Source: a bacterium
Lineage (GTDB): Bacteria; Actinomycetota; Coriobacteriia; Coriobacteriales; CADBOM01
Direction: 5' to 3'
Length of the DNA: 64,000 nucleotides
NCBI GenBank assembly: GCA_024698685.1
Contig: JAILQZ010000002.1
Location: 4,366-68,365 of the forward strand
Positions 5,440 through 63,888 of this stretch are shown here, one piece after another (the stretch's first letter is position 1; each line of letters starts with the position of its first letter). Under the pieces are notes generated by a model. That model saw only the letters and a program-made list of their open reading frames with translations, had not been told where the DNA came from and searched no databases. Made by a program: the position numbers and the translations under genes.

Positions 5440-5442
5440 TAG

Positions 5443-5469
5443 AGGCCCGGCAATGCGATTGCCGGGCCT
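5443..5469 (-). terminator. Hairpin terminator downstream of secF.
   Basis: A 9-bp stem formed by aggcccggc (5443-5451) and gccgggcct (5461-5469) with a 9-nt loop. It resembles the hairpin at 2790-2822. Confidence 0.55.
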
Positions 5470-5497
5470 TTGTATCGAAAGCTATTAAAAGCGCAGG

Positions 5498-42969: not shown

Positions 42970-42977
42970 GGGCGCCA

Positions 42978-45870: not shown

Positions 45871-45882
45871 AGGGAAGTTGAA

Positions 45883-46638: not shown

Positions 46639-47390
46639 CGCGCGTTCTCCTATACGGAGGGACGACCGAAGGGCACGAGCTCGCCTGCGCGCTTGCGGAG
46701 GCTGGCCTCGAGGTCTGCGTCAGCGTGGCCACCGACGAGGGCGCCAAGGTGCTCCCGAAGGACCTCGCAGGGCTCACCGTGCGCATCGGCGCGCAGGATG
46801 CGGAGGAAAAGCACGAGTTGATGACCAGCGGCTTCGACGTCGTCGTCGACGCCACGCACCCCTATGCGACATCCGTTAGCAAGTCGGTGCGGGAGGCGGC
46901 GCAGCGGGCGGGTCTTCCGCTGCTGCGGATCATCAGGCCCAAAGGCGACACCGAGGGCTGCATCCTCGCCAGCTCGATTGCCGACGCGGTGGGCAAGATC
47001 CCGCCAGAGGGCAACGTGCTCGCCACCACCGGGAGCAAGGAAATCGGCCTCTACGCTGCGATGGAAGGCGTAGGAGAGCGCCTGTTCGCGCGCGTGCTCA
47101 ACGTTGAATCGTCCGTCGAGGCGTGCCGTGCGGCGGGCATCCCCGACGAGCACATCATCGCCAAGCGCGGACCCTTCTCGGTAGAGGAGAACATGGAATG
47201 CATCGACGAGCATCGCATCGAGGTGCTCGTGACCAAGGACGGCGGCAACGCCGGAGGATACCCCGAGAAGCTCGAGGCAGCGCGTGCCCGCGGCGTGACG
47301 ATGATCGTCATCGAGCGCCCCGAAGAGGAGACGGGCATCGAGAAGGACGAGGCGCTGCGGATGATACTCGAAGGAAGGTTTTCGCTATGA
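46635..47390 (+). CDS. cbiJ: Cobalt-precorrin-6A reductase CbiJ/CobK.
   Basis: 251 aa, beginning MTRVLLYGGTTEGHELA. The start overlaps the upstream stop as ATGA. Confidence 0.85.
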   Translation: MTRVLLYGGTTEGHELACALAEAGLEVCVSVATDEGAKVLPKDLAGLTVRIGAQDAEEKHELMTSGFDVVVDATHPYATSVSKSVREAAQRAGLPLLRIIRPKGDTEGCILASSIADAVGKIPPEGNVLATTGSKEIGLYAAMEGVGERLFARVLNVESSVEACRAAGIPDEHIIAKRGPFSVEENMECIDEHRIEVLVTKDGGNAGGYPEKLEAARARGVTMIVIERPEEETGIEKDEALRMILEGRFSL

Positions 47391-48652: not shown

Positions 48653-50049
48653 GCGGCAAGGCCAAAGCCGCCGCTATCCCGCGCATCATGATCTCTGCGG
48701 GCGCCAGTGGATCCGGCAAGACGACGATAACCTCCGGGCTGCTGCGATGCCTTTCGAACAAGGGCATCGCCACCATCGCCTACAAGTGCGGCCCCGACTA
48801 CATCGACCCGATGTTCCACAAGACTGTCCTCGGCATTCCCTGCCGCAATCTCGACCTCTTCTTCTCCGACGAGAGCGAGGTGCGCACGCTGATGGCCGAA
48901 AGCTCCAGCGGCTACAGCGTGGCCGTGGTCGAGGGCGTCATGGGATTCTACGACGGCCTCGGCGGATCGGATACGCAGGCTTCGGCCTACCATGTGGCGC
49001 GCACGACCGGCACCCCTGTCATCCTGGTAGTCGACGGGCGCGGAGTCTCGTTGACGCTGGCCGCGACGATCAAGGGGCTCATCGGCTTCCGCGAGGGCAG
49101 CAACATCGCCGCCGTCATCATCAACCGCTGCTCCAAAGCGCTCTTCGAGCACCTCAGGCCGATCATCGAGAGCGAGTGCGGCGTCAAGGCGCTCGGATAC
49201 GTCGAGAACAGTCCCGAGATGGCTCTGGAAAGCCGGCATCTCGGCCTCGTCACCGCAGGCGAGGTCGATGACCTGCAGGCGCGCATCGACGCGATAGCGA
49301 GCCGCCTCGAGGTCTCGATCGACTTCGACGCGCTGCTCGAGATAGCCCGCGGCGCAGAGCCGATCGATTTCGAACCCTCTTCCGTGGAGCCGCTGGCAAC
49401 GGCAGCGGAGGCGCCCTGCATCGCGGTGGCGAGAGACGATGCCTTCTGCTTCTACTACGAGGAGAGCCTCGAGCATCTGCGCAGGCTGGGGGCCAGAATC
49501 GTCCCCTTCTCCCCCATCGCGGACAACGAGCTTCCATCCGAGGCCGACGCGCTCTACATCGGAGGCGGCTACCCCGAGCTGCACGCCGAGGAGCTCTCCG
49601 GCAACTCGACGATGCTCGAGTCGATCAGGCGCGCGCACGGAGAGGGCATGCCGATCTTCGCCGAATGCGGGGGCTTCATGTATCTCAAAGAACGCATGGC
49701 CGACCTCGACGGACGCGAGTTCGAGATGGTCGGGGTCCTCAGCGGCGGGGCGCACTACACAGGCAAGCTCACGCGCTTCGGCTACGTCGACCTCGAGGCG
49801 AAAGCCGATGGCCTCGGCATCGCCAAGGGCAGCCACATGAGGGCGCACGAGTTCCACTATTACGACAGCGACGACAACGGCAGCGCGATGCATGCCTCCA
49901 AGCAGCACTCCAAGCGCAGCTGGGACTGCTGCATAGCAGAGAAGAGGCTGTTCGCGGGCTTTCCGCACCTCTACCTGCCGGCGTGCGACGAGTTCGCGCG
50001 CGGGTTCGTGAGCACCGCGATCGAATACAGGGCGGAGCGGCTCGGATAG
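48649..50049 (+). CDS. cbiA: Cobyrinate a,c-diamide synthase CbiA.
   Basis: 466 aa with GASGSGKTTITSGL and a C-terminal glutamine amidotransferase (FAECGGFMYL). Confidence 0.9.
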   Translation: MSGKAKAAAIPRIMISAGASGSGKTTITSGLLRCLSNKGIATIAYKCGPDYIDPMFHKTVLGIPCRNLDLFFSDESEVRTLMAESSSGYSVAVVEGVMGFYDGLGGSDTQASAYHVARTTGTPVILVVDGRGVSLTLAATIKGLIGFREGSNIAAVIINRCSKALFEHLRPIIESECGVKALGYVENSPEMALESRHLGLVTAGEVDDLQARIDAIASRLEVSIDFDALLEIARGAEPIDFEPSSVEPLATAAEAPCIAVARDDAFCFYYEESLEHLRRLGARIVPFSPIADNELPSEADALYIGGGYPELHAEELSGNSTMLESIRRAHGEGMPIFAECGGFMYLKERMADLDGREFEMVGVLSGGAHYTGKLTRFGYVDLEAKADGLGIAKGSHMRAHEFHYYDSDDNGSAMHASKQHSKRSWDCCIAEKRLFAGFPHLYLPACDEFARGFVSTAIEYRAERLG

Positions 50050-50089
50050 GCCGAGCGCTGACGCAAGCACCAAAAGGGCAAGGAGACGA

Positions 50090-51616
50090 ATGGGCAAGGC
50101 ACTGATGATACAGGGGACCACCTCCAACGCGGGCAAGAGCCTGACCGTTGCGGCGATCTGCCGCATCCTGGCGCAGGACGGCTACAGCGTCGCCCCCTTC
50201 AAGAGCCAGAACATGGCGCTCAACAGCTTCATCACGCACGAGGGTCTCGAGATGGGCCGCGCACAGGTGATGCAGGCAGAGGCGGCGGGCATCGAGCCGC
50301 TCGTCGCGATGAACCCTATCCTGCTCAAGCCGACCGGCGACACGGGCAGCCAGATCATCGTCAACGGCGAGGTCACGGGGAACATGAGCGCAACCGACTA
50401 CTTCGACTTCAGGCACACGCTGCGCCCGAAGGTCATGGAGGCGTTCGATTCGCTGGCCAGCACGCACGACTTCGTCATAATCGAGGGCGCGGGCTCGCCG
50501 GCGGAGATCAACCTCAAGAAGGACGACATCGTCAACATGGGCATGGCGAAGATGGCCAAGGCTCCCGTGCTGATCGTCGGCGACATCGACCGTGGCGGCG
50601 TCTTCGCGAGCCTTTACGGCACGGTAGCGCTGCTCGACGATGACGAACGTACGCTCGTGAAGGGAACGATCATCAACAAGTTCCGCGGCGACAAGACGCT
50701 GCTCGACCCCGGCCTCGTCATGCTCGAGGACCTCACCGGCGTTCCGTGCCTCGGCGTCATTCCCTACATGCACCTTGACATCGACGACGAGGACTCGCTA
50801 TCCGACCGCATCGCCGGCGGCCGAGTCGGAGATGGTCCGATCGACATCGCGGTAGTGCGCCTCTCGCACCTGTCGAACTTCACCGACACCAACCCGCTGT
50901 CGCGCTATCGCCAGCTCTCGGTGCGCTATGTCGACAGACCCGAGGACCTGCGCAGCCCCGACCTCATCATCCTGCCAGGCACCAAGAACACGATGGACGA
51001 CATGGATTGGCTAGTCTCGCGCGGGCTGGACGTGGCGATTCGCCGCAGGGCAGCGGAAGGCGCGCTCATCCTCGGGATCTGCGGAGGCTACCAGTTGCTT
51101 GGCGAACGCCTCGACGACCCCGAGGGCGTCGAGCACGGCGGCTCGATGGCGGGCCTCGGCCTCCTCCCGATGCGCACGGTCTTCACCTCCGACAAGCGCC
51201 GCACGCGCGTCGACGCGATCACCGGCGAATTCATCGGCGAATTCGCGCAGCTTTCGGGCAAGACTCTCACCGGATACGAGATCCACATGGGCGCAACCGT
51301 GCCGGTCAACGGCGAGTGGGCGGAAGGCGCCAGGCCCTTCGCGACGTTGACCGACGACAACGGCAACACCATGGTTGACGGTTGCGTCTGCGGCAACGTC
51401 ATCGGCAGCTACTGCCATGGCATGTTCGAGGACGGCAGCTTCGGGCAGGCGCTCGTCGGGATGCTGTGCGAGCGCAAGGGCGTCGCAGCGAGCGACTTCC
51501 CCATCGAGACCTTCAGGCGTTACAAGGACAGGCAGTACGACGAGCTCGCCGCCACTGTGCGCGAGAGCATAGACATGGAGCTTCTGATGAGGATCATCGA
51601 GGAGGGTGTGCGATGA
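50090..51616 (+). CDS. cobQ: Cobyric acid synthase CobQ/CbiP.
   Basis: 508 aa, beginning MIQGTTSNAGKSLTVAAICR, with GICGGYQLLG. Confidence 0.95.
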   Translation: MGKALMIQGTTSNAGKSLTVAAICRILAQDGYSVAPFKSQNMALNSFITHEGLEMGRAQVMQAEAAGIEPLVAMNPILLKPTGDTGSQIIVNGEVTGNMSATDYFDFRHTLRPKVMEAFDSLASTHDFVIIEGAGSPAEINLKKDDIVNMGMAKMAKAPVLIVGDIDRGGVFASLYGTVALLDDDERTLVKGTIINKFRGDKTLLDPGLVMLEDLTGVPCLGVIPYMHLDIDDEDSLSDRIAGGRVGDGPIDIAVVRLSHLSNFTDTNPLSRYRQLSVRYVDRPEDLRSPDLIILPGTKNTMDDMDWLVSRGLDVAIRRRAAEGALILGICGGYQLLGERLDDPEGVEHGGSMAGLGLLPMRTVFTSDKRRTRVDAITGEFIGEFAQLSGKTLTGYEIHMGATVPVNGEWAEGARPFATLTDDNGNTMVDGCVCGNVIGSYCHGMFEDGSFGQALVGMLCERKGVAASDFPIETFRRYKDRQYDELAATVRESIDMELLMRIIEEGVR

Positions 51617-52143
51617 GCGAGGATGCCAAGAGGGGCCTCGTCCACCTCTACTCCGGGGACGGCAAGGGCAAGACGACCGCAGCTATGGGCTTGGCGGCCA
51701 GGGCTGCAGGCAGCGGAAAGCACGTGGTGATCGCGGAGTTCCTCAAGGGCGACCGCTCCTGCGAGCTCAACACGCTGCGACTCAGCGACAACGTCGAGGT
51801 CATGAAGGCCGACTGCCCCGTCAAGTTCTCCTTCCGGATGACCGACGAGGAGAGGGAGCGCACCAGGCTCGCGAACGACGAGCTGCTCGCGCGTCTCGCG
51901 CAGTGCGATTGCGACCTCATCGTGGCCGACGAGGCCATCAACGCCTACAGGCTCGACCTCATCGACCGCCAGGCGCTCAAGGACTTCGTCGTCAACAAGC
52001 CCGAGGGCACGGAGCTCGTGCTCACCGGCCGCCAGCCAGACGAGTTCTTCATCGAGCACGCGGACTACGCAACGGAGATGGTGTGCCGCAAGCATCCATA
52101 CCGAGAGCAGGGAATCAAGGCAAGAAAGGGTATCGAATTCTGA
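51613..52143 (+). CDS. cobO: Cob(I)yrinic acid a,c-diamide adenosyltransferase (CobO/BtuR type).
   Basis: Starts MSEDAKRGLVHLYSGDGKGKTTAAMG (ATGA overlap with cobQ). Confidence 0.85.
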   Translation: MSEDAKRGLVHLYSGDGKGKTTAAMGLAARAAGSGKHVVIAEFLKGDRSCELNTLRLSDNVEVMKADCPVKFSFRMTDEERERTRLANDELLARLAQCDCDLIVADEAINAYRLDLIDRQALKDFVVNKPEGTELVLTGRQPDEFFIEHADYATEMVCRKHPYREQGIKARKGIEF

Positions 52144-52787
52144 TGGCAACTATCGAACAGGTGCTTCCGAACGAGATCGAGAAGCGCAGCATGCAAATCA
52201 TCGGCGAGGAGCTCGCCGAGATGGGAATCGAGCTCGACCCGCGCAACGAGGCGGTCATAAAGCGGGTGATCCACACCTCCGCCGACTTCGACTACGCCAC
52301 CAGCCTCGCCTTCTCCGAGGGCGCGGTGGACGCCGGCGTGGCGGCACTCAAGCGCGGAGCCACCATCGTCACCGACACCAAGATGGCATGGTCGGGAATC
52401 AGCAAGCCCGCGTTGGCCAAGCTAGGCGCCGACGCGCAGTGCTACATGAGCGACCCAGACATCGCGCAGGCCGCCAAGGACAATGGCACGACCCGCGCTG
52501 TGGCTTGCATGAACAAGGCCGCAAGGCTCGAAGGCGACGTCATCATCGCTGTCGGCAACGCGCCAACCGCGCTCATCGAGCTGGACAAGCTGATCAAAGA
52601 TGGTAGAATCTCCCCCGCTCTGGTTATCGGCGTGCCAGTCGGCTTCGTCAACGTGGTCGCCAGCAAGGAGATCATCATGGAATCCGGCGTGCCCTACATC
52701 GTCGCGAAGGGGCGCAAGGGCGGAAGCAACATCGCAGCAGCGATCTGCAACGCCATGTTGTATGAGGCAACGAGGCGCGAGCTCTAG
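52143..52787 (+). CDS. cbiC: Cobalt-precorrin-8 methylmutase CbiC.
   Basis: Starts MATIEQVLPNEIEKRSMQII, with the motif VGNAPTAL. Confidence 0.9.
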   Translation: MATIEQVLPNEIEKRSMQIIGEELAEMGIELDPRNEAVIKRVIHTSADFDYATSLAFSEGAVDAGVAALKRGATIVTDTKMAWSGISKPALAKLGADAQCYMSDPDIAQAAKDNGTTRAVACMNKAARLEGDVIIAVGNAPTALIELDKLIKDGRISPALVIGVPVGFVNVVASKEIIMESGVPYIVAKGRKGGSNIAAAICNAMLYEATRREL

Positions 52788-52805
52788 GCATTGGAAGGAA
52801 GCGTC

Positions 52806-53837
52806 GTGAAGGACACTAAAGCAAGGCGCAAGACGAGATGGACGATGTCGTTCATCATACTCGGAGTGCTCCTGATAGTCTTCATGATCCTCAACATCGT
52901 CAAGGGCAGCGTCGACGTGCCCTTCTCCGACGTCATCGCGATCTTCTCAGGCGGTGACGCCAACGAGGTATCGCGGCAGATCGTGCTCTCGATGCGCATG
53001 CCGCGCGCTCTGGCCGCGGTGCTGCTCGGCGGCGCGCTAGCCCTCTCGGGCTACCTGCTGCAGACCTTCTTCCACAACCCGCTGGCCGGCCCGTTCGTCC
53101 TGGGAATCTCCTCGGGCGCAAAGCTGATCGTCGCCATCACGATGGTCTTCTTCCTCGGGTTCGGCATCAAGATGGGCTCGATCGCGATGATCGTCGCGGC
53201 GTTCATCGGCTCGATGATCGCGATGGGCTTCGTGCTGCTGATATCCAAGCGCGTCAACAACATGTCGATGCTGATCGTCGCCGGCATCATGGTCGGCTAC
53301 ATCTGCTCGGCCATCACCGAGTTCATCGTCACATTCGCTGACGACTCCGATATCGTCAACCTGCACAACTGGTCGCTGGGAAGCTTCTCGGGCACCACAT
53401 GGGACAACGTCGGCGTGATGGCGGTCATCGTCATCATCACCACGATCTTCGTCTTCCTGCTCTCCAAGCCGATCTCGGCCTACCAGCTCAGCGAGACATA
53501 CGCGGCCAACATGGGCGTCAACGTCAAGGCCTTCCGCGCGATCCTCGTCCTTCTCTCCAGCCTGCTCTCCGCCTGCGTAACCGCATTCGCCGGCCCGATC
53601 TCGTTTGTCGGAATCGCGGTGCCCCAGATAGTCAAGAACCTGTTCAAATCGTCGAAGCCGCTGCTGATGATACCCGCCTGCTTCGTGGGAGGAGGGGTCT
53701 TCTGCCTCCTCTGCGACCTGCTGGCGCGCATCGCTTTCGCACCCACCGAGCTATCGATCTCGACGGTAACCGCGGTCTTCGGCGCGCCGGTCGTCATCGC
53801 GGTCATGCTCCGCAGGCGCGCTGGGAAGATGGACTGA
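52806..53837 (+). CDS. FecCD/BtuC-family ABC permease (corrinoid/siderophore/heme type).
   Basis: The ORF runs 52791..53837 and begins with TTG. I prefer the GTG at 52806, which follows GGAAGGAAG. It carries the motif RMPRALAAVLLGGALALSGYLLQTFFHNPLAGPFVLGISSGA. Confidence 0.85.
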   Translation: MKDTKARRKTRWTMSFIILGVLLIVFMILNIVKGSVDVPFSDVIAIFSGGDANEVSRQIVLSMRMPRALAAVLLGGALALSGYLLQTFFHNPLAGPFVLGISSGAKLIVAITMVFFLGFGIKMGSIAMIVAAFIGSMIAMGFVLLISKRVNNMSMLIVAGIMVGYICSAITEFIVTFADDSDIVNLHNWSLGSFSGTTWDNVGVMAVIVIITTIFVFLLSKPISAYQLSETYAANMGVNVKAFRAILVLLSSLLSACVTAFAGPISFVGIAVPQIVKNLFKSSKPLLMIPACFVGGGVFCLLCDLLARIAFAPTELSISTVTAVFGAPVVIAVMLRRRAGKMD

Positions 53838-53847
53838 GGTGGTGGCG

Positions 53848-55005
53848 ATGGCTCAGGGCGCAGCTCCTCACGACAAGTACTACTTCACCGCCGAGAAGAT
53901 GACCGTCGGCTACGATGGCGTGCCCTTGATCGAGAACATCGACATCGAGATCGCAAAGGGCGAGATCCTCACGCTCATCGGGCCCAACGGCGCAGGCAAG
54001 TCGACGATTCTCAAGACGATTACCAAGCAGCTCTCGCTGCTCGGCGGCGCTGTCTACCTCAACGGCGAGGACATCCACAAGGTCAATCAGAAGGAGCTCG
54101 CGAAGCAGATCGCGGTCATGCTCACCGAGCGCATCCGCCCCGAGCTCATGACCTGCGAGGACGTCGTCGGAACGGGTCGCTATCCCTACACGGGCAGTCT
54201 GGGCCTGCTCACGGAGGAGGATGAGGCGGTCGTCAAGCGGACGATGGAGCTCGTGCGCATCTCCGAACTGGCCGATCGCGACTTCATGGCGATCAGCGAT
54301 GGCCAGCGCCAGCGCGTCATGCTCGCCAGGGCGATCTGCCAGGAGCCCGAGCTCATGATCCTCGACGAGCCCACCTCCTTCCTCGACATACGCTACAAGC
54401 TCGAGTTTCTCAACATCCTGCAGGAGATGTCGCGCAAGCAGGGAATGACCGTCGTGATGTCGCTGCACGAGCTCGACCTCGCCGAGCGTATCAGCGACAA
54501 GATCCTCTGCGTGCGTGGCAAGACCATCGACCGCTTCGGCACCCCCGACGAGGTCTTCGAGCCCGGATACATCGACAGCCTCTACGAGCTCACCGTCGGC
54601 TCCTACGATGCGTCATCGGGTCGCGTTGAGCTGCCGCGCATCGAGGGCGAGCCGGAGGTATTCGTCATCTCCGGCAACGGCACGGGCACCAGCTTCTTCA
54701 GGCAGCTGCAGCGTCTCTCCGTCCCCTTCGCCACCGGCATCCTCTCGCAAAACGACATCGATTATCCGGTCGCCTCGGTGCTGGCCGCCAACGTGATATC
54801 GGTTCCGGCATTCACCTTCTTCGGCGAGGGCGAGCTCGCGCAGGCGCGCGCGCAGATCGATTCCTGCGGCTGCGTCGTCATAACGCTAGGCAGCGAGGCT
54901 ACGATCCCGCATGAGCTGAACTCGCTGCTCGAATACGCAGCCGGCATTGGCAAGCAGGTCCTCTCCCCCGGCGAATACCTGGCGCAAAGGGCCGCCCAAG
55001 CCTGA
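53848..55005 (+). CDS. FecE/BtuD-family ABC ATPase with a ~125-aa C-terminal extra domain.
   Basis: The ORF runs 53839..55005 and begins with GTG. I prefer the ATG at 53848, which follows GAGGTG. It has Walker A GPNGAGKST and the signature ISDGQRQRVMLARA. Residues after about 262 (EPEVFVISGNGTGTSFF...) lie beyond a normal ABC cassette. Confidence 0.85.
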   Translation: MAQGAAPHDKYYFTAEKMTVGYDGVPLIENIDIEIAKGEILTLIGPNGAGKSTILKTITKQLSLLGGAVYLNGEDIHKVNQKELAKQIAVMLTERIRPELMTCEDVVGTGRYPYTGSLGLLTEEDEAVVKRTMELVRISELADRDFMAISDGQRQRVMLARAICQEPELMILDEPTSFLDIRYKLEFLNILQEMSRKQGMTVVMSLHELDLAERISDKILCVRGKTIDRFGTPDEVFEPGYIDSLYELTVGSYDASSGRVELPRIEGEPEVFVISGNGTGTSFFRQLQRLSVPFATGILSQNDIDYPVASVLAANVISVPAFTFFGEGELAQARAQIDSCGCVVITLGSEATIPHELNSLLEYAAGIGKQVLSPGEYLAQRAAQA

Positions 55006-55161: not shown

Positions 55162-56049
55162 ATGAGCTATGCTCAGAGCCCGAAGGTCAAGTATCCCGAC
55201 GATTACCTGGTTTCACCCGATGCTGAATGGGAGCTCGTCGCCCATACGGACGATTGCATCGTGCTCGAGGGCATAAACTTCGTCGGAGACGAGCTATGGC
55301 TCCTCGACACCGGCCGCGGTCGCATCCTCAAGGTCGAGGGCGACAAGATCGTCGTCGCGCTCCAGAGCGAGAAGGGAATGCCCAACGGAATGAGGCCGCT
55401 CGATGACCACACGATCCTTGTGGCCGACCGCATCCTGGGGCTATGCACCTACGACACCATCACCGGCGAATACGTGGTTCGCTGCACGGGTCTGCCAGAC
55501 GCCCCGTTCATCCACATCGACGACCTCGTGCTAGATGGGCGCGGCGGCGCATACATCACCGACCCCGGCGGCAGCAACTACATCAACCCGTTCGGCCGCG
55601 TATTCTACGTCCGCTACGGCGACGGCAGCTGGGAGTGCGAGGAGTTCCTCAAAGGCATCGCGTTCCCTAACGGAATCACGCTCTCGCCCGACGGGATCTT
55701 CGTCTACATCGCCGAATTCAGTTCCAACACGATCATCGCCGCTCCCTCGAAGCTCTACGACGACGACAAGGAGGCACCCTATGCATTCGCGCGCCTCGTC
55801 GGAGGCATCGGCCCCGACGGGCTCATCACGGACACGCAGGGCAACATCTACGCGGCGCATCTGCACGCAGGCGAGGTCGTGGCCTTCGACAAGAAGGGCT
55901 GGCCGATCGCGGAGATCCGACTCCCCGAATGCGCTGGCGTCGTGAACACCAACCTCTGCATCCACGATGGATACCTCTACACGTGCGAGCTCGAGAAGGG
56001 CGACGTGTGGCGCATCCCGATCAAGGCGGAGCAGCACCAGCTCTCGTAG
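55162..56049 (+). CDS. SMP-30/gluconolactonase/LRE-family beta-propeller protein.
   Basis: 295 aa with the motifs PNGMRPLDD, DDLVLDGRGGAYITD, FPNGITLSPDG and GPDGLITDTQGN. Confidence 0.7.
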   Translation: MSYAQSPKVKYPDDYLVSPDAEWELVAHTDDCIVLEGINFVGDELWLLDTGRGRILKVEGDKIVVALQSEKGMPNGMRPLDDHTILVADRILGLCTYDTITGEYVVRCTGLPDAPFIHIDDLVLDGRGGAYITDPGGSNYINPFGRVFYVRYGDGSWECEEFLKGIAFPNGITLSPDGIFVYIAEFSSNTIIAAPSKLYDDDKEAPYAFARLVGGIGPDGLITDTQGNIYAAHLHAGEVVAFDKKGWPIAEIRLPECAGVVNTNLCIHDGYLYTCELEKGDVWRIPIKAEQHQLS

Positions 56050-56264: not shown

Positions 56265-56480
56265 ATGGCTAGATGGAACGCGCCCACGGGCGCGGGCTGT
56301 TCGAAAGGGCAGCAAGGGGAATGCGGGTGAGAGTCCCGCGCTATACCAGTAACCGTAAGGCTTTGCATCAAGATCCTCTAAGCGATGCAGACGAAGTCGG
56401 AATGCCTTTCCATCGAAAACTTTGTTGCCCTGGATGGCTTTGCGCTCGAATGAATCCTCCAGGAAAAGTTGGCTCCAATG
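56265..56480 (+). promoter_or_regulatory. Cobalamin (B12) riboswitch. Boundaries are approximate.
   Basis: The core is AAGGGGAATGCGGGTGAGAGTCCCGCGCTATACCAGTAACCGTAAGG (about 56313-56360). This compares with the consensus GGGAA..GGTG.A.ATCC...C.GT.CCCGCAACCGTAA. A B12-box-like GAAGTCGGAATGCC lies at 56393-56406. The element sits about 110-320 nt upstream of the cbiK-like gene. Confidence 0.75.
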
Positions 56481-56587: not shown

Positions 56588-57469
56588 ATGAAGAAGCTAC
56601 TTGTTGCAATCACTGTCGTGGCTGCCCTGTGCGCTGGAATGATCGCAGGTTGCTCCGGCAGCAAGGCCGAGCCGGATCCCACCAAGGAGATCCTGGTCGT
56701 GAGCTTCGGCACCAGCTTCGCCGATAACCGCGAGGAGACCATCGGCGCAGTCGAGAGCGCGATCCAGGAGGCGTTCCCGGAGTGGACCGTCGCTCGCGCG
56801 TTCACCGCTCAGATCATCATCGACAAGGTTGCCAAGGAGGAGGGCGTCGAGATCGATAACTTCGAGCAGGCACTCCAGAGGGCACATGACAACGGCGTCA
56901 CCACGCTCGTCATCCAGCCTACCCACCTGATGCATGGCCTCGAGTACACCGATGTCAAGAACACCCTCGCCCAGTATGAGGACCAGTTCGAGACGGTCGT
57001 CCTGGCAGAGCCGCTGCTCTCCAGCGATGAGGACTTCGAGGCAGTCGCGAAGGCCATCACCGACGCAACCAAGGACAGCGACAACGGCACCACCGCCCTC
57101 GTCTTCATGGGCCATGGCACCGAGGCCGACTCCAACGCAGTCTATGCTAAGATGCAGGGCGTCCTGACCGCTGATGGCTTCGCCAACTACTATGTCGGCA
57201 CCGTCGAGGCAACCCCGTCCCTCGATGACGTCATCGCCGCAATCGACGGTAAGGGCTACACCGATGTCGTCCTCACCCCGCTCATGGTTGTCGCTGGCGA
57301 TCATGCCAACAACGACATGGCTGCTCAGGATGATCCCGAGTCCTGGTACAGCATCCTCACCGCCAAGGGCTATAACGTAACTGCCAATCTCACCGGCCTT
57401 GGCTCGCTCAAGCCGATCCAGGATCTCTACGTTCAGCACACCCAGGCTGCCATCGATAGCATTCAGTAA
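56588..57469 (+). CDS. cbiK: CbiK-type sirohydrochlorin cobaltochelatase homologue with a lipoprotein signal peptide (exported).
   Basis: 293 aa with the lipobox AGMIAGCSG. It is CbiK-like throughout (ILVVSFGTS, FMGHGTE, PLMVVAGDHANNDM). Both catalytic His positions are present. Confidence 0.85.
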   Translation: MKKLLVAITVVAALCAGMIAGCSGSKAEPDPTKEILVVSFGTSFADNREETIGAVESAIQEAFPEWTVARAFTAQIIIDKVAKEEGVEIDNFEQALQRAHDNGVTTLVIQPTHLMHGLEYTDVKNTLAQYEDQFETVVLAEPLLSSDEDFEAVAKAITDATKDSDNGTTALVFMGHGTEADSNAVYAKMQGVLTADGFANYYVGTVEATPSLDDVIAAIDGKGYTDVVLTPLMVVAGDHANNDMAAQDDPESWYSILTAKGYNVTANLTGLGSLKPIQDLYVQHTQAAIDSIQ

Positions 57470-57566: not shown

Positions 57567-58769
57567 TTGAAGAAGTTTCTGAGCATGGCGATGTCGCTGG
57601 CGCTCGCGCTCGCGATGTGCTTCGGCATCCCTGCGGCGATCGCCGATGACGGAGTTGCCGGCAGCGACGAGTATGGCGGTCGCGAGGCCGTCGCCAACGA
57701 TGGCATGATCCCCGTCTCGGGCGACCAGCTGCCCGATGGCACCTACAACATCGACGTCATCTCCGATTCCGGGATGTTCAACATCGTCAACTGCGTCCTC
57801 AAGGTGAAGGACGGCAACATGACCGCCACCGTGACGCTCTCCGGCGATGGCTACGACTTCCTCTACATGGGAACCGGCGAGGAGGCCGTCAAGGCCGGAA
57901 CCGCCGCATATTCGGGCTATAAGGAGAACTCGGACGGCAAGTACGAGTACACCGTCGAGGTCTCGGCCCTCAACGAGGGCATTCCCTGCGCGGCGTTCAG
58001 CCACCGCAAGCAGCAGTGGTACGACCACACAATCGTCTTCTCCCCCGCCAAGATCGACAAGGACATCCTGCCTGCAGGAACCTACTGCGCCGAGAGCACC
58101 GATCCATTCAACGGGGCCGGCTACATCGACCTCGAGGACGGTACCTACACGATGGATGTCGAGTTCGCGGGTGGAAGCGGCAAGGCATCGATCAACTCCC
58201 CGGCGAAGCTGACCGTCAAGGACAAGTGCGCCTCCGCCGAGCTCGAGTGGAGCAGCGATGGCTACGACTACCTGGTCGTCAACGGCTACAAGTACCCGAA
58301 GACCAATACCGAGGGCAACTCGAAGTTCGAGATCCCGGTGCTCTGCTACGACAAGCCGATGGACATCATCGGCGACACCACGAAGATGAGCACGCCGCAT
58401 GAGATCGACTACACCCTCACCTTCAAGAAGGACACCGCGAAGGCGGCTGGATCGCTTGGCGGCTCGACCCTGTGGATCATCATCGGCATCGTCGTCATCG
58501 CGGTCATCGTCGTCGCAGCGCTTCTCGTGAGAAAGAGCCGCAAGAAGAAGGCGAGCGACCTGCCGATGACTGCTGCTGCAGCTGAGGAAGCGGTAGAGGA
58601 AGCTGCCGCAGACGCAGCCGATGCCGTCGAAGCTGTCGAAGAGAAGGTCGAGGAGATCGCCGAGACTGCCGAAAACGCAGCTGCCGAGGCCGAAGAGGCC
58701 GCCGAAGAGGTTGCCGAGATCGCAACCGATGTCGCTGACGATGCGGCCGAGGCTATCGAGGAGAACTAG
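57567..58769 (+). CDS. Surface protein with a signal peptide, two tandem ~120-aa beta-rich domains, a single C-terminal TM anchor and an Ala/Glu-rich acidic cytoplasmic tail.
   Basis: 400 aa with a TTG start 6 nt after GAAAGGGAGG. The internal repeat is LPDGTYNIDV...LKVKDGNMTATVTLSGDGYDFLYMG against LEDGTYTMDV...LTVKDKCASAELEWSSDGYDYLVVNG. The TM helix is LWIIIGIVVIAVIVVAALLV, followed by RKSRKKK. Confidence 0.8.
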   Translation: MKKFLSMAMSLALALAMCFGIPAAIADDGVAGSDEYGGREAVANDGMIPVSGDQLPDGTYNIDVISDSGMFNIVNCVLKVKDGNMTATVTLSGDGYDFLYMGTGEEAVKAGTAAYSGYKENSDGKYEYTVEVSALNEGIPCAAFSHRKQQWYDHTIVFSPAKIDKDILPAGTYCAESTDPFNGAGYIDLEDGTYTMDVEFAGGSGKASINSPAKLTVKDKCASAELEWSSDGYDYLVVNGYKYPKTNTEGNSKFEIPVLCYDKPMDIIGDTTKMSTPHEIDYTLTFKKDTAKAAGSLGGSTLWIIIGIVVIAVIVVAALLVRKSRKKKASDLPMTAAAAEEAVEEAAADAADAVEAVEEKVEEIAETAENAAAEAEEAAEEVAEIATDVADDAAEAIEEN

Positions 58770-58772
58770 GCG

Positions 58773-59951
58773 ATGGCAAAGGTTATCACCAAGGCTTTGA
58801 GGCGCGTTGCCGTTGCGATGGCGTGCATCGCGCTCTCCGCCTTCGCGCTGGCTGGCTGCTCTGGGGACAAGAGCATCTCCCCCGAGAACGTCAGCTCCGA
58901 GTTGACGTACGACCACAGCATGGAGCTCAAGTATGCGAAGCTGTTCTCAGTCGACTACTACAACGACGGCTACAAGCTGATCACGCTCGATGGCGAAGGC
59001 AGCTATCTCGTCGTTCCTGAAGGCGCGGCCATCCCAGGCGATCTCTCGCCTGAGATAGTCGTTTTGCAGCAGCCGCTCGACCAGATCTACCTCGTCGCCT
59101 CATCCGCCTTCGATATGTTCAAGGCGATCGACGGCATCGACACGATCCACCTCTCCGGCACCAAGGTCAGCTCCTGGCACATCAAAGAGGCCGTCGACGC
59201 GATGAACTCAGGGAAGATCCTCTACGCGGGCAAGTACAACATCCCCGACTACGAGCTGATCCTCTCCGAAGGTTGCGACCTCGCGATCGAGTCGACGATG
59301 ATCTACCACACCCCCGAGGTAAAGGAGGCGATCGAGGGCTACGGCATCCCGGTATTCGTCGACATGTCGAGTTACGAGGATGAGCCGCTCGGCCGCTCCG
59401 AGTGGGTCAAGGTCTACGGCGCGATGCTGAACAAGGAGGCCGAGGCCGAGGCCGCCTTCGATGCGCAGGAGGCCATGTTCGACGCGGTGGCCGATGAGGT
59501 CGCCGGCACCAGCACGGGCAAAACCATCGCCTTCTTCTACATCACGACGAGCGGCGAGGTCAACGTGCGCAAGTCGACCGACTACGTGCCGAAGATGATC
59601 GCCCTTGCCGGCGGAGAATACGCCTTCTCCGACCTCGAGGGCGACCCCGATAGCAGGACGAGCAGTGTCACGATGCAGATGGAGGACTTCTACAACACCG
59701 CGAAGGACTGCGACATCCTGATCTACAACTCGACGATCACCGGCGAGGTCGATTCCATCGATGAGCTGCTCGGCCTGAGCAGCTTCATGGGCGAATTCAC
59801 CGCGGTGTCGACGGGCAACGTCTGGTGCACCTCGCAGAACATGTATCAGGAGTCGATGCAGCTGGGTTACTTCGTCAAGGACCTCCACACAATCCTCGTC
59901 AACCCAGATGCCTCCGACAGCGAACTCGTCTATCTGCGAAAGCTGCACTAA
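58773..59951 (+). CDS. ABC substrate-binding lipoprotein, BtuF/HmuT/FecB class.
   Basis: 392 aa with the lipobox ALAGCSG. Its layout is that of a class III periplasmic-binding protein (...LQQPLDQIYLVASSAFDMFKAIDGIDTI...). Confidence 0.7.
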   Translation: MAKVITKALRRVAVAMACIALSAFALAGCSGDKSISPENVSSELTYDHSMELKYAKLFSVDYYNDGYKLITLDGEGSYLVVPEGAAIPGDLSPEIVVLQQPLDQIYLVASSAFDMFKAIDGIDTIHLSGTKVSSWHIKEAVDAMNSGKILYAGKYNIPDYELILSEGCDLAIESTMIYHTPEVKEAIEGYGIPVFVDMSSYEDEPLGRSEWVKVYGAMLNKEAEAEAAFDAQEAMFDAVADEVAGTSTGKTIAFFYITTSGEVNVRKSTDYVPKMIALAGGEYAFSDLEGDPDSRTSSVTMQMEDFYNTAKDCDILIYNSTITGEVDSIDELLGLSSFMGEFTAVSTGNVWCTSQNMYQESMQLGYFVKDLHTILVNPDASDSELVYLRKLH

Positions 59952-60106: not shown

Positions 60107-60454
60107 CTACTTGCAGGTGTAGGGGCCGGGAACGAACAGAACCTGGTTGGGCTTCTTGTCCATCTCGACGATGAGCTCGTCAATCGGTCCGAACCTCATG
60201 ACGCCAGCGAGGCAGTGATGGACGCAGGTGGGAAGCTTGCCCTTGGCCTGACGGTCTGCGCAGAGGTCGCACAGCGAAGTCGGGGTTGGGATCTTGTTCC
60301 AGTTCATCGTCTTCTCGTCGATCTCCCAGGGACCCTCGTCGAGGACCCTGATGCCCCACTTGCCAACGCCGAAGCCATGCTCCTGCTTGCAGGCGATCTC
60401 GCAGGATTGGCAACCAGAGCAGAACTCGTAATCGATCAAAAGGCCGTTTCTCAT
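60107..60454 (-). CDS. Mini-ferredoxin subunit (two predicted [4Fe-4S] clusters) of the molybdopterin oxidoreductase.
   Basis: 115 aa. CSGCQSCEIAC together with CDLC...CVHHC gives 8 Cys in two cluster motifs. It lies 12 nt downstream of the catalytic-subunit gene, with an AGGAGG RBS. Confidence 0.8.
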   Translation of the reverse strand: MRNGLLIDYEFCSGCQSCEIACKQEHGFGVGKWGIRVLDEGPWEIDEKTMNWNKIPTPTSLCDLCADRQAKGKLPTCVHHCLAGVMRFGPIDELIVEMDKKPNQVLFVPGPYTCK

Positions 60455-60466: not shown

Positions 60467-62755
60467 TTATTTGTTCAGCTTCTCGATCTTGCAGATGATG
60501 CACTTGAAGGGTGCGCCGAAGCCGAGCTTGCCGACGAACTTGTGTGGCATGAGGTTGTTGATGTTGCAGCGCCAGACTCCGTAGAGATGCGGCTCTTCAG
60601 CATCCTCCTCAGGGAACCAGAAGCCATGCTGGGCGTTTGCAAGGCCCTGCCTGACGACCGGAGTGATCTTGGCCTTGAGCTCGCATCTGCCGAACTCGTT
60701 CTCGACGTTGACCCACTCGCCATCGATGATGCCGAGCTTCTCGGCGTCCTTCGGATTGATCTCGATCCACGGATCGGGATTGAGCTCGCGGAGCAGCGGG
60801 ATCTGCTTGCCCTCGGAGTGGAAGTACGCATAGACGCGCGAACCAGTGGTGAGGACGAACGGATACTCCTCCATCAGCTCCGGAGTGGAGATCGGCGAAC
60901 GCTGCGGCTCCTCGTAGTAGGGCAGCGGATCCTCGCCGAACTGGGCGAACATCGTCGAGTAGAGCTCAACGCGGCCGGTCGGGGTGTTGAATCCCCTCTT
61001 GCGATCGGGACGCAGGAGGCCGAGCTCGTACTTCTTGTAGGTGACCTTGCGCTGGCGGGTGACCTCTTCCTTGAGCTCGTTGTAGTCGATGTTGTTGCCG
61101 AAGCGGAACTCCTCCATGAAGTCGTAGAGGGTCGGGAACTTGGCGTAGTTGTCGGGCATGATCCTGCGGCCGATCTCGTACTGGATCTCGAGGTCGCCCT
61201 TGGTCTCGCCAACCTGGACGGCGTTGACCACGGAACCGGTCATGTTCGGCGATGCGCCGTAGTGGACCGCGACGCCCGACTCCCTCTCGGCGAAGGTGGC
61301 CAGCGGGAGGATGACGTCCGCGCAGCACTGGATCGTCGGGGTGATCCAGCAGTCGGCGGCGAAGACGAAGTCGAGCTTCTGCATGGCGTCATGCCAGCGC
61401 TTGGGCTGTGCGGCGCAGGTTCCTGCGAGCAGGTTGGTGGATGCGATGAAGCCAGCGTGGATCTCATAGGGCTCGCCGGTCTCCATGGCCTCGAGCGTGA
61501 GGTCCGCATGCGAGTTGAGGACGATCGCGACGTAGGCCGGATACTCCTTGAGGCCGATGATCTTGTTCTGAAGCTCAGGACCGAGCGAGCTCCAGCCGAA
61601 ACCGAGGTCGGCCAGGGAGTCGGTCACGTCTCCGAGGAGCTGTCCGCCGGGGACGTCGAGGTTGCCGGTGAGGGCCTCGAGGGCGAGGATGCAGTGTCCA
61701 GCCTGCGCGCCGTTGGCCTTCTGGTCGATCGCGAGACCCCAGAGGATCGCCGCGTTCTGGGCGTTGGCGTACATGCGGGTGGCGCCGTAGATGTCCTCGA
61801 CGTCGATGCCGCAGATCTCGGCGGCTCTCTCGGGAGGCATCGTCGCGACGCGCTCCGCGAGCTGCTCGAATCCGTAGCAGTACAGGCTGACGAACTCCTC
61901 ATCGTAGAGCCCCTCGCTGATGATGATGTTGAGCATCGCCATGCCGAGCGCGGCATCGGTGCCGGGACGCAGCGGCAGGTGATAGACGGCGCGGGTGGCC
62001 AGCCAGTTGGTGCGCGGGTCGACCGAGATGAGCTTGGAACCGCGCTTCATGCAGTCGATGACGGAGTGTCCGAAGAATCCGTCGCCGTTGGAGGGCAGAG
62101 GCTCCTTGCCCCAGGTCATCATGACCTCGGGGATCTTGTACATCGGGTCATCATAGCGCCCCGGCAGACCGCCTGCATAGTCCATCTCGGGATAGGTTGC
62201 GCCGGTGACGAACGTCGCAGCGGCAACGCGCGGGATGTAGCATGCATAGCCCGACTGGGTGTAGCAGGAGTTGGGGGTTCCGAGCATAGCCTGCCCGTAG
62301 GGGCCGCACATCGGGCCGCCCTCGCGGCCGGTTCCTCCGAAGACGACGATGGACTCCGGGCCGTACTTCTCCTTGATGTCCTTGATGTTGGTCTCGATGA
62401 TCTCGTAGGCCTCGTCCCAGGTGATGCGCTCCCACTTGTTCTTGCCGCGATCCTCGAAGGCGCGCTTCATCGGGTAGATGACGCGATCGGGATGGTAGGT
62501 CATGTCCGGGAGGGTCAGGCACCTGACGCACAGGCGGCCCTGGGTGATGGGCTGGTTCTCATCGCCCTCGACCTTCTCCAGGATTCCATCCTCGTTCACG
62601 TAGAATTTGATGCCGCATCCAACAGGATGGCATCCGGGTGCGGACCATGCGCAACCGCGGGTGACGGTATATCCGTCCTCCTCGAACTGCCACGGCTTGT
62701 CGAGGTCGTTGTTGAAGGCCTCGATTCCGCTATCGATTTTCGGTCGTGTTGCCAT
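60467..62755 (-). CDS. Molybdopterin (bis-MGD, DMSO-reductase superfamily) oxidoreductase catalytic subunit with no Tat signal.
   Basis: The ORF runs 60467..63085. I chose the start at MATRPKIDSGIEAFNNDL (ATG 62755), preceded by GGAAAGAAAGG; upstream of that point the ORF overlaps the torD-like gene. The N-terminal Cys cluster is GCAWSAPGCHPVGCG...CVRC. The body is MopB-like. Confidence 0.85.
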   Translation of the reverse strand: MATRPKIDSGIEAFNNDLDKPWQFEEDGYTVTRGCAWSAPGCHPVGCGIKFYVNEDGILEKVEGDENQPITQGRLCVRCLTLPDMTYHPDRVIYPMKRAFEDRGKNKWERITWDEAYEIIETNIKDIKEKYGPESIVVFGGTGREGGPMCGPYGQAMLGTPNSCYTQSGYACYIPRVAAATFVTGATYPEMDYAGGLPGRYDDPMYKIPEVMMTWGKEPLPSNGDGFFGHSVIDCMKRGSKLISVDPRTNWLATRAVYHLPLRPGTDAALGMAMLNIIISEGLYDEEFVSLYCYGFEQLAERVATMPPERAAEICGIDVEDIYGATRMYANAQNAAILWGLAIDQKANGAQAGHCILALEALTGNLDVPGGQLLGDVTDSLADLGFGWSSLGPELQNKIIGLKEYPAYVAIVLNSHADLTLEAMETGEPYEIHAGFIASTNLLAGTCAAQPKRWHDAMQKLDFVFAADCWITPTIQCCADVILPLATFAERESGVAVHYGASPNMTGSVVNAVQVGETKGDLEIQYEIGRRIMPDNYAKFPTLYDFMEEFRFGNNIDYNELKEEVTRQRKVTYKKYELGLLRPDRKRGFNTPTGRVELYSTMFAQFGEDPLPYYEEPQRSPISTPELMEEYPFVLTTGSRVYAYFHSEGKQIPLLRELNPDPWIEINPKDAEKLGIIDGEWVNVENEFGRCELKAKITPVVRQGLANAQHGFWFPEEDAEEPHLYGVWRCNINNLMPHKFVGKLGFGAPFKCIICKIEKLNK

Positions 62756-62829
62756 AGCGTACCTTTCTTTCCTTTTCCATTTATATGCAGGCGTCCACCT
62801 GTGCAAACCTGCAGGCAGAGCGCCCTTTT

Positions 62830-63525
62830 TCACAACTCCAAAGCCTGCGAGATGCGATCTCTGTCGGCCTCCAGGACTGCCAGCGCGAGCTTTGCGAGCG
62901 CGCTGTAGAAGGCGGTCTCGGAGAATTGCTGGACGAGCTGGGCGAACTGCGGAACCCATGTGAGCATGTGAGCGTCGATGAAGTCCCTTTGCTCTCGCAG
63001 ATATCCCTCGGCCTTGCTCGGCTCGCCCTCGCGCACGGCCAGGATCTCCTGCCCGGTGAGGAACTGCATGAACTCGAGCTCGCACGCGATGTGGTCGTCG
63101 AAATCGATGCGAGTTTTGGTTGGGCGGAATCCGTAGGCGTTGTAGGTGGCGGTAACATCGAGGGTGCTCTCTTGAAGCAGGCTGCCGTTGCGCGAGACGT
63201 AGACCGACTCGTAGGGAACCGCAGCCCTCGGCCCCTTGGGCCTGTTCTTGTCGTTGGGATCCGGAGGGTATCCGATGAACGATATGACGTAGTCGATCGC
63301 AAGATTGGACTTGGTGCGATCGTTCGCCTCATCGAGGTATGCCCTCATCTCGGCATAGGAAGCGTCGATAGCCTCGTTGCCCGATGGCTCGGGAACGGGG
63401 CTATCGATCAGATCCTTGAGAAGCGGCGCGTCGATTTCCAGCCTGAACAGGCGCGAGAGCATTGCATAGTCCTCGTACCTTTCCTGAAGAAGCTCCTCGG
63501 AAAGCATCCTGTCCAGGCTCGACAT
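62830..63525 (-). CDS. TorD/DmsD-family cofactor-insertion chaperone.
   Basis: 231 aa. The motifs YAMLSRLFRLEID and DHIACELEFMQFL are typical of TorD-like chaperones. Confidence 0.75.
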   Translation of the reverse strand: MSSLDRMLSEELLQERYEDYAMLSRLFRLEIDAPLLKDLIDSPVPEPSGNEAIDASYAEMRAYLDEANDRTKSNLAIDYVISFIGYPPDPNDKNRPKGPRAAVPYESVYVSRNGSLLQESTLDVTATYNAYGFRPTKTRIDFDDHIACELEFMQFLTGQEILAVREGEPSKAEGYLREQRDFIDAHMLTWVPQFAQLVQQFSETAFYSALAKLALAVLEADRDRISQALEL

Positions 63526-63540: not shown

Positions 63541-63888
63541 CTAGCCGTAGTGATAGGGCTGGGGAACGAAGAGAACCTGGTTGGGCTTGAGTTCAAGCTC
63601 CTTGGCCAGCTCCTCGACCGTTCCATACTGCATGACGCCAGCCAGGCAATGATGCACGCAGAAAGGCTGCTTGCCCTTGGACGTCCTGTCTTCGCAGAGG
63701 TCGCAAAGACGCGTGGGAACCGGGATCTTGTTCCAGTTGTACTTGCCGTCGGAGCACTTCCAGGGGCCGTCGTCGAGAAGGCGGATGCCCCACTGGCCTA
63801 CCGGGATGCCGTGCTCTTCCTTGCAGGCTACCTCACAAGATTGGCAACCGGTGCAGAACTCGTAATCGATCAGAAGTCCGTATGCCAT
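63541..63888 (-). CDS. Mini-ferredoxin subunit, paralogue of 60107..60454.
   Basis: 115 aa, beginning MAYGLLIDYEFCTGCQSCEVACKEEHG. It has the same length and Cys pattern as the first copy. Confidence 0.8.
   Translation of the reverse strand: MAYGLLIDYEFCTGCQSCEVACKEEHGIPVGQWGIRLLDDGPWKCSDGKYNWNKIPVPTRLCDLCEDRTSKGKQPFCVHHCLAGVMQYGTVEELAKELELKPNQVLFVPQPYHYG

Follow-up and report, generated by a model that had tools for sequence, protein, structure and literature searches.

What does a membrane-anchored surface protein capture, and for which transporter, when its gene lies behind a cobalamin riboswitch in a bacterium of the Coriobacteriales? The question is raised by the open reading frame at 57567-58769 (+) of a 64,000-nucleotide stretch (the window) of contig JAILQZ010000002.1, assembly GCA_024698685.1, which an earlier note had described as a two-domain surface protein of no recognisable signature, reminiscent of NEAT domains and possibly belonging to B12-regulated loci. 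Our analysis points to a surface corrinoid or tetrapyrrole receptor that would supply the binding protein of a BtuFCD-type importer under riboswitch repression, a reading to which we give a probability of roughly 0.6. The ligand would be a cobalt tetrapyrrole, with cobamides or incomplete corrinoids as the likeliest members of that class, and the protein is probably an undescribed capture protein of the B12 family (corrinoids). The genomic context is the strongest evidence for the link to B12.

The reading frame encodes 400 residues, identical to the translation quoted in the earlier note. It opens with a TTG codon behind a good Shine-Dalgarno sequence (GAAAGGGAGG), a start shared by the public protein P0001, which is 100% identical, comes from a metagenome-assembled genome (MAG) and is annotated as 'hypothetical protein'. 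Its parts are as follows.

57567..58769 (+): the whole reading frame, with signal peptide, NEAT-like domain 1, linker, NEAT-like domain 2, transmembrane (TM) helix, basic stop-transfer segment and acidic tail
57567..57644 (+): signal peptide, residues 1-26, likely signal peptidase I site between AIA and DD, as read from the sequence
57729..58046 (+): NEAT-like domain 1 (type A), residues about 55-160, AlphaFold2 confidence (pLDDT) 93-97
58128..58436 (+): NEAT-like domain 2 (type B), residues about 188-290, sub-threshold Pfam NEAT match at residues 189-287, pLDDT about 88-93
58470..58550 (+): C-terminal TM helix, residues 302-321, and stop-transfer segment RKSRKKK, residues 322-328, from the sequence (helix at residues 299-328 in the model)
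58554..58766 (+): cytoplasmic acidic Ala/Glu-rich tail, residues 330-400, from composition

The same reading of the N-terminus found no canonical lipobox. When the halves of the protein were compared directly by BLASTP, domains 1 and 2 aligned with E=5e-6 and 44% identity over 48 residues, and profile-profile comparison of the two domain families with hhalign gave a probability of 97.9% and E=5.8e-13 over 98 columns. Both scores place the internal duplication beyond chance. The two-domain, membrane-anchored architecture that had been proposed is confirmed.

An AlphaFold2 model built from an input alignment of 65 sequences has pLDDT values (means over blocks of 10 residues) of about 88-97 across both domain cores, with 8-9 strands per domain. 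With this predicted structure as the query, Foldseek listed 50 matches in the PDB, and those with E<=0.001 were NEAT proteins without exception; NEAT or Shp entries made up the majority of the 50. The two-NEAT units IsdH-N2N3 and IsdB aligned along the whole domain pair, with E-values as low as 1.6e-6, and one domain at a time was matched by IsdX1 (target-normalised template modelling score 0.70-0.72), IsdX2-N5 (0.68-0.70) and Hbp2-N2 (0.65); Shp (2q7a) was a weak match (E=0.047, score 0.41). In the model, then, each ectodomain adopts an eight-stranded immunoglobulin-like beta-sandwich of the NEAT type. At the sequence level, Pfam NEAT (PF05031) matched domain 2 over profile positions 3-116 of 119 with E=8.7e-4 and 20.2 bits, below the gathering score of 32.8, and the Pfam match was confined to this domain. 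A domain-2-type copy in the relative P0142 clears the threshold at 55 bits, other relatives likewise give Pfam NEAT matches, and the domain-2 profile aligns to IsdX1 and IsdX2-N5 over DGxY...ESPAxLTVKxGK. The domain-1 profile found nothing meaningful among PDB sequences and has no sequence-level NEAT match; the whole protein yielded only spurious matches there, to its TM helix and tail, and an NCBIfam scan only low-complexity or TM noise (GltJ, PspM, ZipA). The absence of a signature thus holds for Pfam matches above threshold and fails for the weaker NEAT match on domain 2, and the suspected NEAT resemblance was borne out.

Other folds fared differently. Pfam HtaA (PF04213) gave no match at E<=1, in agreement with the earlier note, and Pfam and NCBIfam showed no match to the BtuG beta-propeller, the BtuH B12-binding domain or DUF4465. 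BtuG, BtuH, transcobalamin, adhesin and pilin structures were all missing from the 50 Foldseek matches listed, so that the BtuG, BtuH and transcobalamin-like folds which had been put forward for comparison found no counterpart. These searches also bear on the idea that the protein is an adhesin or a generic immunoglobulin-like surface protein, devoid of a ligand pocket and present in its operon by chance. Such a protein could account for the weak, sub-threshold Pfam matches to the immunoglobulin-like families Big_13 and Big_3_5 (E=0.02-0.1), but no adhesin or pilin family was matched in Pfam or NCBIfam, the best structural matches are NEAT domains only, the synteny around the gene is fixed across at least 80 species-level loci, and some relatives are fused to a substrate-binding protein (see below), all of which makes this explanation very improbable.

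The fold is that of a receptor, and the neighbouring genes indicate what it may serve. The elements of the locus in the window are these.

56298..56415 (+): adenosylcobalamin (AdoCbl)-II cobalamin riboswitch aptamer, Rfam RF01689, 41.5 bits (gathering score 36.5), E=1.6e-6, full model 1-81
56588..57469 (+): exported CbiK-like lipoprotein, 293 residues, lipobox IAGC, Pfam CbiK 2.5e-79, class II chelatase fold
58773..59951 (+): Peripla_BP_2 substrate-binding lipoprotein, 392 residues, lipobox LAGC, Pfam Peripla_BP_2 5.9e-25
52791-53837 (+): FecCD permease, Pfam FecCD 2.3e-82
53839-55005 (+): ATP-binding cassette (ABC) ATPase, Pfam ABC_tran 1.2e-30
55162-56049: SMP-30/gluconolactonase-like gene, unrelated, following the displaced FecCD and ABC genes
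42870-52787: contiguous anaerobic cobalamin biosynthesis cluster with CbiD, 2-3 tetrapyrrole methylases, CbiG, CbiJ, CbiA, CobQ, CobO/BtuR and CbiC

The riboswitch, the sole one in the window to reach its Rfam gathering score, lies 173 nucleotides upstream of the CbiK-like gene and governs a unit of three genes only, which encode the CbiK-like lipoprotein, the NEAT-like protein and the binding lipoprotein, the presumed acceptor of the ligand. The operon order is permuted here, with the FecCD and ABC genes displaced upstream to the 3' end of the cbi biosynthesis operon. The exported CbiK-like protein is the only CbiK-type chelatase seen in the window.

To place this arrangement in a wider context we compared 84 related loci from Lachnospiraceae, Oscillospiraceae, Ruminococcus, Butyricicoccus and Coriobacteriaceae. 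Counting only genes not lost to contig ends, the order CbiK-like, NEAT-like, Peripla_BP_2, FecCD and ABC is kept in 82 of them, with the FecCD and ABC genes directly after the binding-protein gene; the exceptions are L045, which lacks the CbiK-like gene, so that the NEAT-like gene comes straight after the riboswitch, but retains the importer, and L083, which has no transporter genes. In 13 of the 14 related loci scanned with Rfam, an RF00174 riboswitch (83-119 bits) precedes the CbiK-like gene, and an nhmmer model made from these matches detected it in 73 of the 84. Five of the 11 nhmmer-negative loci end before the upstream region, which leaves 79 evaluable loci, and 74 of these have a cobalamin riboswitch of one of two classes upstream of the operon, including the Coriobacteriaceae locus L038, where the AdoCbl-II class occupies the position equivalent to that in the window (32.8 bits, E=7e-4). 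The occurrence of two riboswitch classes before the same operon in two phyla makes B12-responsive regulation hard to dismiss, and the expectation that relatives of the gene would be found in B12-regulated loci was upheld. Furthermore, in L076 the operon continues a cbi operon, and in L002 it adjoins the lower-pathway salvage genes cobU, cobS, cbiB and cbiP. As a separate observation, the ABC ATPase of the importer is long (365-388 residues; 53839-55005 in the window, 11099-12196 in L002, 11717-12823 in L004), and in related loci it carries a C-terminal domain, PF27219 (MJ0874), which is the sole cytoplasmic extra domain of the system.

If the protein is a receptor, its conserved residues should say something about the ligand. 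In NEAT domains the haem pocket is formed by the lip and the beta7-beta8 hairpin, as seen in the IsdA, IsdC and IsdX1 structures, and the canonical YxxxY on beta8 supplies a first Tyr that ligates the haem iron and a second that hydrogen-bonds to the first. YxxxY is not present in the target sequence, as had been noticed before; from strand order, the alignment of the two domains to each other and the range of the Pfam alignment, the corresponding beta8 positions would be K148xxxY152 in domain 1 and H278xxxY282 in domain 2. A competing HMMER sub-alignment (3.4 bits) that set IsdX1 YNASY against beta6 of domain 2 was put aside in favour of strand order. Conservation, measured over 147 diverse representatives sharing <=50% identity, concentrates at the lip after beta1 and at the beta7-beta8 hairpin, and since these are the elements of the NEAT haem pocket this argues for a ligand site in a presumed pocket.

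In domain 1 the lip motif is S66-D-S-G-M70-F71 (family consensus S-S-S-S-M-F, where IsdX1 has SSRMN), the hairpin reads C141AAFSHRKQQW151Y152 and a conserved helix insertion, MGTGEEA, occupies residues 104-110; conservation is 100% for W151, 93% for F71, 91% for Y152 and S145, 82% for M70 (82-88%), 68% for K148 and 55% for C141. In domain 2 the lip is G202GSGKA (family form G-G-S-G-K/R-A) and the hairpin T271-K-M274-S-T-P-H278-E-I-D-Y282, with G202 conserved in 100%, Y282 in 98% and M274 in 95% of the representatives, and position 278, that of the NEAT iron-ligand Tyr, held by His in 78% and by Tyr in 8%. A search for conserved axial ligands, which the earlier note had suggested for the two domains, has a candidate in domain 2 and fails in domain 1, which has Lys at the equivalent position; Cys141 was rejected as a conserved axial ligand because its conservation is a mere 55% and it is replaced by Val in L038 and by Phe in P0142. 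The Tyr-278 variants, true YxxxY sequences, are likewise no separate haem-type subfamily outside B12 control, a possibility that was discarded when all six of those among the fetched loci (6/6) proved to lie behind cobalamin riboswitches; His and Tyr thus interchange inside one orthologous, B12-regulated group. Fe(III)-haem favours tyrosinate, and cobalt corrinoids prefer the imidazole that they meet in transcobalamin and in His-on B12 proteins. On these general grounds of coordination chemistry, the change from Tyr to His would fit a switch from Fe(III)-haem to a cobalt corrinoid.

Several observations weigh against a corrinoid ligand. Among characterised proteins, the closest relatives of each of the three extracytoplasmic proteins bind haem: the target is nearest to NEAT domains, the binding protein to IsdE and Lmo2184, and the chelatase-like protein to FetB and to the periplasmic CbiK of Desulfovibrio vulgaris, CbiK(P). 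Searched against PDB sequences, the profile of the binding-protein family is nearest to Listeria Lmo2184 (6.3e-10) and Staphylococcus aureus IsdE (1.2e-3), also matches siderophore and haemin binders, HutB weakly among them, and returned no BtuF at E<=1, a weak negative because Escherichia coli BtuF is very divergent. The solved structures closest to the CbiK-like protein are Salmonella enterica CbiK (2.8e-43) and the haem-binding FetB of Porphyromonas gingivalis (9b86, 1.1e-42), with D. vulgaris CbiK(P) (2xvx) at 4.2e-30, and the metal-binding or catalytic His/Glu/His set is retained (MGHG, VE and GDHA are kept in the alignments), which hints at metal chemistry rather than simple corrinoid binding. 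The NEAT pocket fits planar haem, and a complete cobalamin with its nucleotide loop is far bulkier. The organism of the window has de novo cbi genes, so corrinoid uptake is not obligatory there. Finally, no cobalamin riboswitch was detected upstream of the CbiK-like gene in L015, L019, L049 and L075; within the reach of its contig, each of the four shows the conserved gene order, and another regulator or a divergent riboswitch may act there. L019 and L049 have a DUF5711 gene immediately upstream of the operon.

Much of this would be explained if the locus were an Isd-like system for haem or metalloporphyrin uptake, in which the NEAT-like domains bind haem, protoporphyrin IX or another metalloporphyrin, the CbiK-like protein acts as a chelatase or dechelatase, a role already proposed for P. 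gingivalis IhtB/FetB, the IsdE-like binding protein imports the product and B12 control reflects a link between tetrapyrrole pools. The NEAT fold, the profile of the binding protein, closest to Lmo2184 and IsdE, and the relationship of the CbiK-like protein to FetB with its chelatase residues intact are all in line with such a system, as are the binding of metalloporphyrins by FetB and D. vulgaris CbiK(P) and the equal layout (lipoprotein, binding protein, permease and ATPase) of the P. gingivalis iht operon. Against it, a corrinoid sensor of either riboswitch class over haem uptake has no known rationale, and the neighbours are cbi and cob genes, not haem-utilisation or Fur-type genes. In addition, the NEAT iron-ligand Tyr is exchanged for Lys or His, and in the binding-protein family the position of the IsdE haem-ligand His aligns with an invariant YNS. 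We consider haem uptake unlikely on balance.

The chelatase residues also suggest a second alternative, the acquisition of cobalt or early intermediates, in which a tetrapyrrole outside the cell, for instance sirohydrochlorin or a corrinoid free of metal, would receive Co2+ from the exported CbiK-like enzyme or be handled by it in some other way. The planar cobalt tetrapyrrole would be held by the NEAT-like domains, and its import would feed the anaerobic B12 pathway. Such planar molecules suit the NEAT pocket, the operon adjoins de novo cbi genes both in the window and in L076, and the chelatase-like protein that keeps these residues is nearly always a lipoprotein (73 of 80 copies in the related loci have a lipobox-like motif). 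L038 encodes at 4807-5880 a CbiK-like lipoprotein with a signal of the twin-arginine type (SRRSFMTGAAALG...ATGC) rather than a Sec signal, which, judged from its sequence, suggests export of a folded, possibly cofactor-loaded protein, and this too would suit an enzyme of this kind. However, no extracellular pool of such intermediates is known, L045 keeps riboswitch, NEAT-like gene and importer in spite of having no CbiK-like gene, and the neighbours of the operon in L002 fit corrinoid salvage, and we regard this explanation as improbable.

A third alternative concerns domain 1, which lacks an axial His or Tyr (KxxxY) and carries the conserved helix insertion. In the Isd system IsdB-N1 and IsdH-N1/N2 bind haemoglobin, and the best Foldseek matches of our protein are the IsdH and IsdB two-NEAT units, in which one domain binds protein and the other the ligand. 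The protein could accordingly be a scaffold or carrier-protein receptor that leaves the small ligand to others and whose domain 1 docks a corrinoid-carrying protein beside the binding protein. The docked protein would be a B12 binder, from the host or from a microbe, or else the CbiK-like lipoprotein. Some relatives have arrays of as many as nine domains, seven at most being of type A, and these resemble multi-NEAT receptors. On the other hand, the domain 1 lip (SSSSMF, with the well-conserved M70 and F71) and W151-Y152 look like a ligand site and not like a variable protein interface, and no partner protein has been identified. The idea also overlaps in part with a corrinoid receptor, since domain 2 could still bind the ligand. 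We see only a slim chance that docking is the main function.

Returning to a corrinoid receptor, the best-supported mechanism would be, by analogy, a relay like that of Isd, in which haem travels from NEAT receptors by way of IsdE to IsdF, moved into the B12 regulon. Low intracellular AdoCbl would let the riboswitch permit expression of the CbiK-like lipoprotein, the target and the IsdE-like binding lipoprotein. The C-terminal TM helix would tether the NEAT-like domains to the outer face of the membrane, a task that falls to an N-terminal lipid anchor in most relatives. Lip loop and beta7-beta8 hairpin would together form the pocket in which these domains capture the ligand. For domain 2 the likely axial ligand would be His278, replaced by Tyr in some orthologues, with Tyr282 in support. 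The captured ligand would then be handed to the binding protein, which would dock on the FecCD/ABC permease.

The anchoring modes and domain arrangements across the family are compatible with such a role. A profile search of 1.84 billion cluster representatives returned 2,621 clusters at E<=1e-3, of which 988 reached E<=1e-30 (clusters defined at 50% identity), with relatives in at least 572 GTDB species, mostly Lachnospiraceae, Oscillospiraceae, Ruminococcus and Butyricicoccus; the public annotation of family members is hypothetical protein. A type A domain followed by a type B domain is the core architecture (235 of 287 proteins), and repeated A/B arrays that end in an A-B pair extend to 1,965 residues and nine domains. 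Giant relatives include P0140 (1965 residues), P0141 (1473), P0147 and P0275 (2538), with orders such as AAAAAABAB; their long N-terminal regions have no Pfam matches, and they resemble hemophores with several NEAT domains, IsdX2 for example. Roughly a tenth of the top representatives have a length of 640-780 residues, and all four of those checked (P0146, P0152, P0162 and P0163) are NEAT-like pairs fused to Peripla_BP_2; L075 is probably a further fusion, to judge from an open frame of 615 residues that has no stop. These natural fusions imply that the NEAT-like protein and the binding protein act together at the membrane surface.

Among the best 120 homologues, an N-terminal lipobox was found in 81, a C-terminal TM helix in 18 and both in 1. 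Such nearly mutually exclusive anchors are expected if the sole requirement is to tether the ectodomain outside. The tail that follows the TM helix and RKSRKKK in our protein has, as the earlier note described, a composition dominated by A, E, D and V (82%, net charge -25), over 71 residues rather than the approximately 65 then estimated. Its proposed role as an interaction or regulatory region is not sustained, since 81 of the 120 are N-terminal lipoproteins that have neither TM helix nor tail. Long tails are restricted to the clade of the window, P0024 and the Coriobacteriaceae MAG of L038; their length spreads over about 60-115 residues and their sequence differs even at 85-88% overall protein identity (73-115 residues in P0002 and P0003, which are 85-88% identical to the target). 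This distribution and variability exclude a conserved domain and mark the tail as lineage-specific, weakly constrained and outside the core mechanism of the family; it is an optional appendage. Acidic tails of unrelated sequence follow the TM helix in three lineages (P0024/L001 8001-9662; L038 6001-7212; window 58554-58766), that of P0024 being composed of D/S/A/P/E repeats (DSDATADAPEGTA-like), and they may be convergent. An origin of the tail as a DNA tandem repeat was also rejected, for the only repeat is a 9-bp unit (TCATCGTCG x4.2) at 58477-58514, within the region coding for the TM helix, where it is due to a IIGIVVIAVIVV run in that helix.

How does this system compare with those already known? 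The tandem NEAT-fold surface ectodomains are shared with the Isd relay of Staphylococcus and Bacillus (IsdB/IsdH, IsdA, IsdC, IsdX1/IsdX2, IsdE, IsdF) and with Listeria Hbp2/Lmo2184, as are a class III binding lipoprotein like IsdE or Lmo2184 and a FecCD permease. The multi-domain arrays of Isd systems (IsdX2) are paralleled in our family, and the presumed counterparts of the Isd NEAT pocket elements, lip and beta7-beta8 hairpin, are the parts conserved in it. The differences are equally clear: Isd loci are iron-controlled, whereas here a cobalamin riboswitch lies upstream (no search was made for Fur or DtxR boxes); where Isd domains have YxxxY, domain 1 has KxxxY and domain 2 HxxxY; sortase anchoring gives way to a TM helix or lipobox, and the target sequence contains neither an LPXTG nor an NPQTN sorting signal; the partner is an exported CbiK-like protein, unlike in Isd; the hosts are commensal gut and rumen Clostridia and Coriobacteriia instead of pathogens; and the target scores under the Pfam NEAT threshold, unlike canonical Isd NEAT domains. 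Streptococcus Shp/Shr and Corynebacterium HtaA are also Gram-positive surface tetrapyrrole receptors that feed a class III ABC importer, but the match of Shp is far weaker than that of canonical NEAT domains, HtaA has no Pfam match and the regulation is different.

On the B12 side, the locus type, with a cobalamin riboswitch upstream of Peripla_BP_2, FecCD and ABC ATPase genes, is shared with BtuFCD importers. The BtuG, BtuH and BtuJ proteins of Bacteroides are likewise surface-tethered accessory proteins in B12-riboswitch-regulated uptake loci, with presumed roles in corrinoid capture and hand-over. According to a September 2026 review, BtuG folds as a beta-propeller, BtuH has a novel globular domain and BtuJ belongs to DUF4465; these folds are unrelated to ours, and delivery is to an outer-membrane TonB transporter, whereas the target, in a bacterium that has no outer membrane, would deliver straight to the ABC binding protein. 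In Desulfovibrio, a study of 2004 had already remarked on exported CbiK homologues that adjoin btuCDF and are controlled by a B12 element. The D. vulgaris CbiK(P)-btuCDF locus, also under a B12 element like our loci, and P. gingivalis IhtB/FetB-IhtCDE follow an equal operon logic of exported chelatase-like binder, binding protein, permease and ATPase; they are Gram-negative periplasmic or outer-membrane systems, no NEAT-like component is described for them in the sources, and their own physiological ligand is unsettled. The P. gingivalis iht operon has been reported to show no transcriptional response to iron or haem starvation (PMC12094164), and it might be corrinoid-regulated given the B12 control here and in Desulfovibrio.

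Of the surroundings of the locus we note only that two 4Fe-4S dicluster proteins of about 115 residues each are encoded at 60107-60454 and 63541-63888 (-), with a molybdopterin-oxidoreductase-like reading frame (60467-63085) and a frame of 231 residues between them (-), and that the G+C content of the window is 60%. Taken together, these features suggest an anaerobe of the Coriobacteriia/Eggerthellaceae type.

To our knowledge, the NEAT fold has so far been known only as a binder of haem or haemoproteins in iron acquisition. We think it a real possibility, though at somewhat less than even odds, that this fold has a large undescribed cobamide- or corrinoid-binding branch (about 2,600 clusters, at least 572 species), with His in place of the axial Tyr, which forms together with the CbiK-like lipoprotein and the IsdE-like binding protein the missing extracellular B12-capture relay of Gram-positive gut and rumen bacteria. 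Domain 1 might in that case also strip corrinoid from carrier proteins, by analogy with the action of IsdB-N1 on haemoglobin. The full-text literature searched, from which most subscription journals are absent, held no earlier account joining NEAT domains and B12. The finding is best filed as a known type of receptor, the NEAT fold, in which the placement in the B12 regulon and the altered axial motif are new.

Gram-positive bacteria carry btuFCD but not btuB, as reviews of 2020 and 2026 point out, and extracellular cobamide capture in them has been termed 'entirely uncharacterized' (September 2026 review). Gut and rumen communities are shaped by competition for cobamides, and capture machinery is known only for Bacteroidota (BtuG, BtuH and BtuJ); the family described here is a concrete and abundant candidate for such capture in Gram-positive bacteria, in Lachnospiraceae, Oscillospiraceae, Ruminococcus, Butyricicoccus and Coriobacteriia, and its soluble ectodomain, about 270 residues long, lends itself to a direct test. 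Should haem prove to be the ligand instead, B12-riboswitch control over haem uptake would itself be unexpected. If corrinoid binding is true, this would be relevant to what exported CbiK homologues such as CbiK(P) and IhtB/FetB do, a question not yet settled; the ligand range of NEAT domains would extend past haem, and the architecture of a haem relay would have been re-used for vitamin B12.

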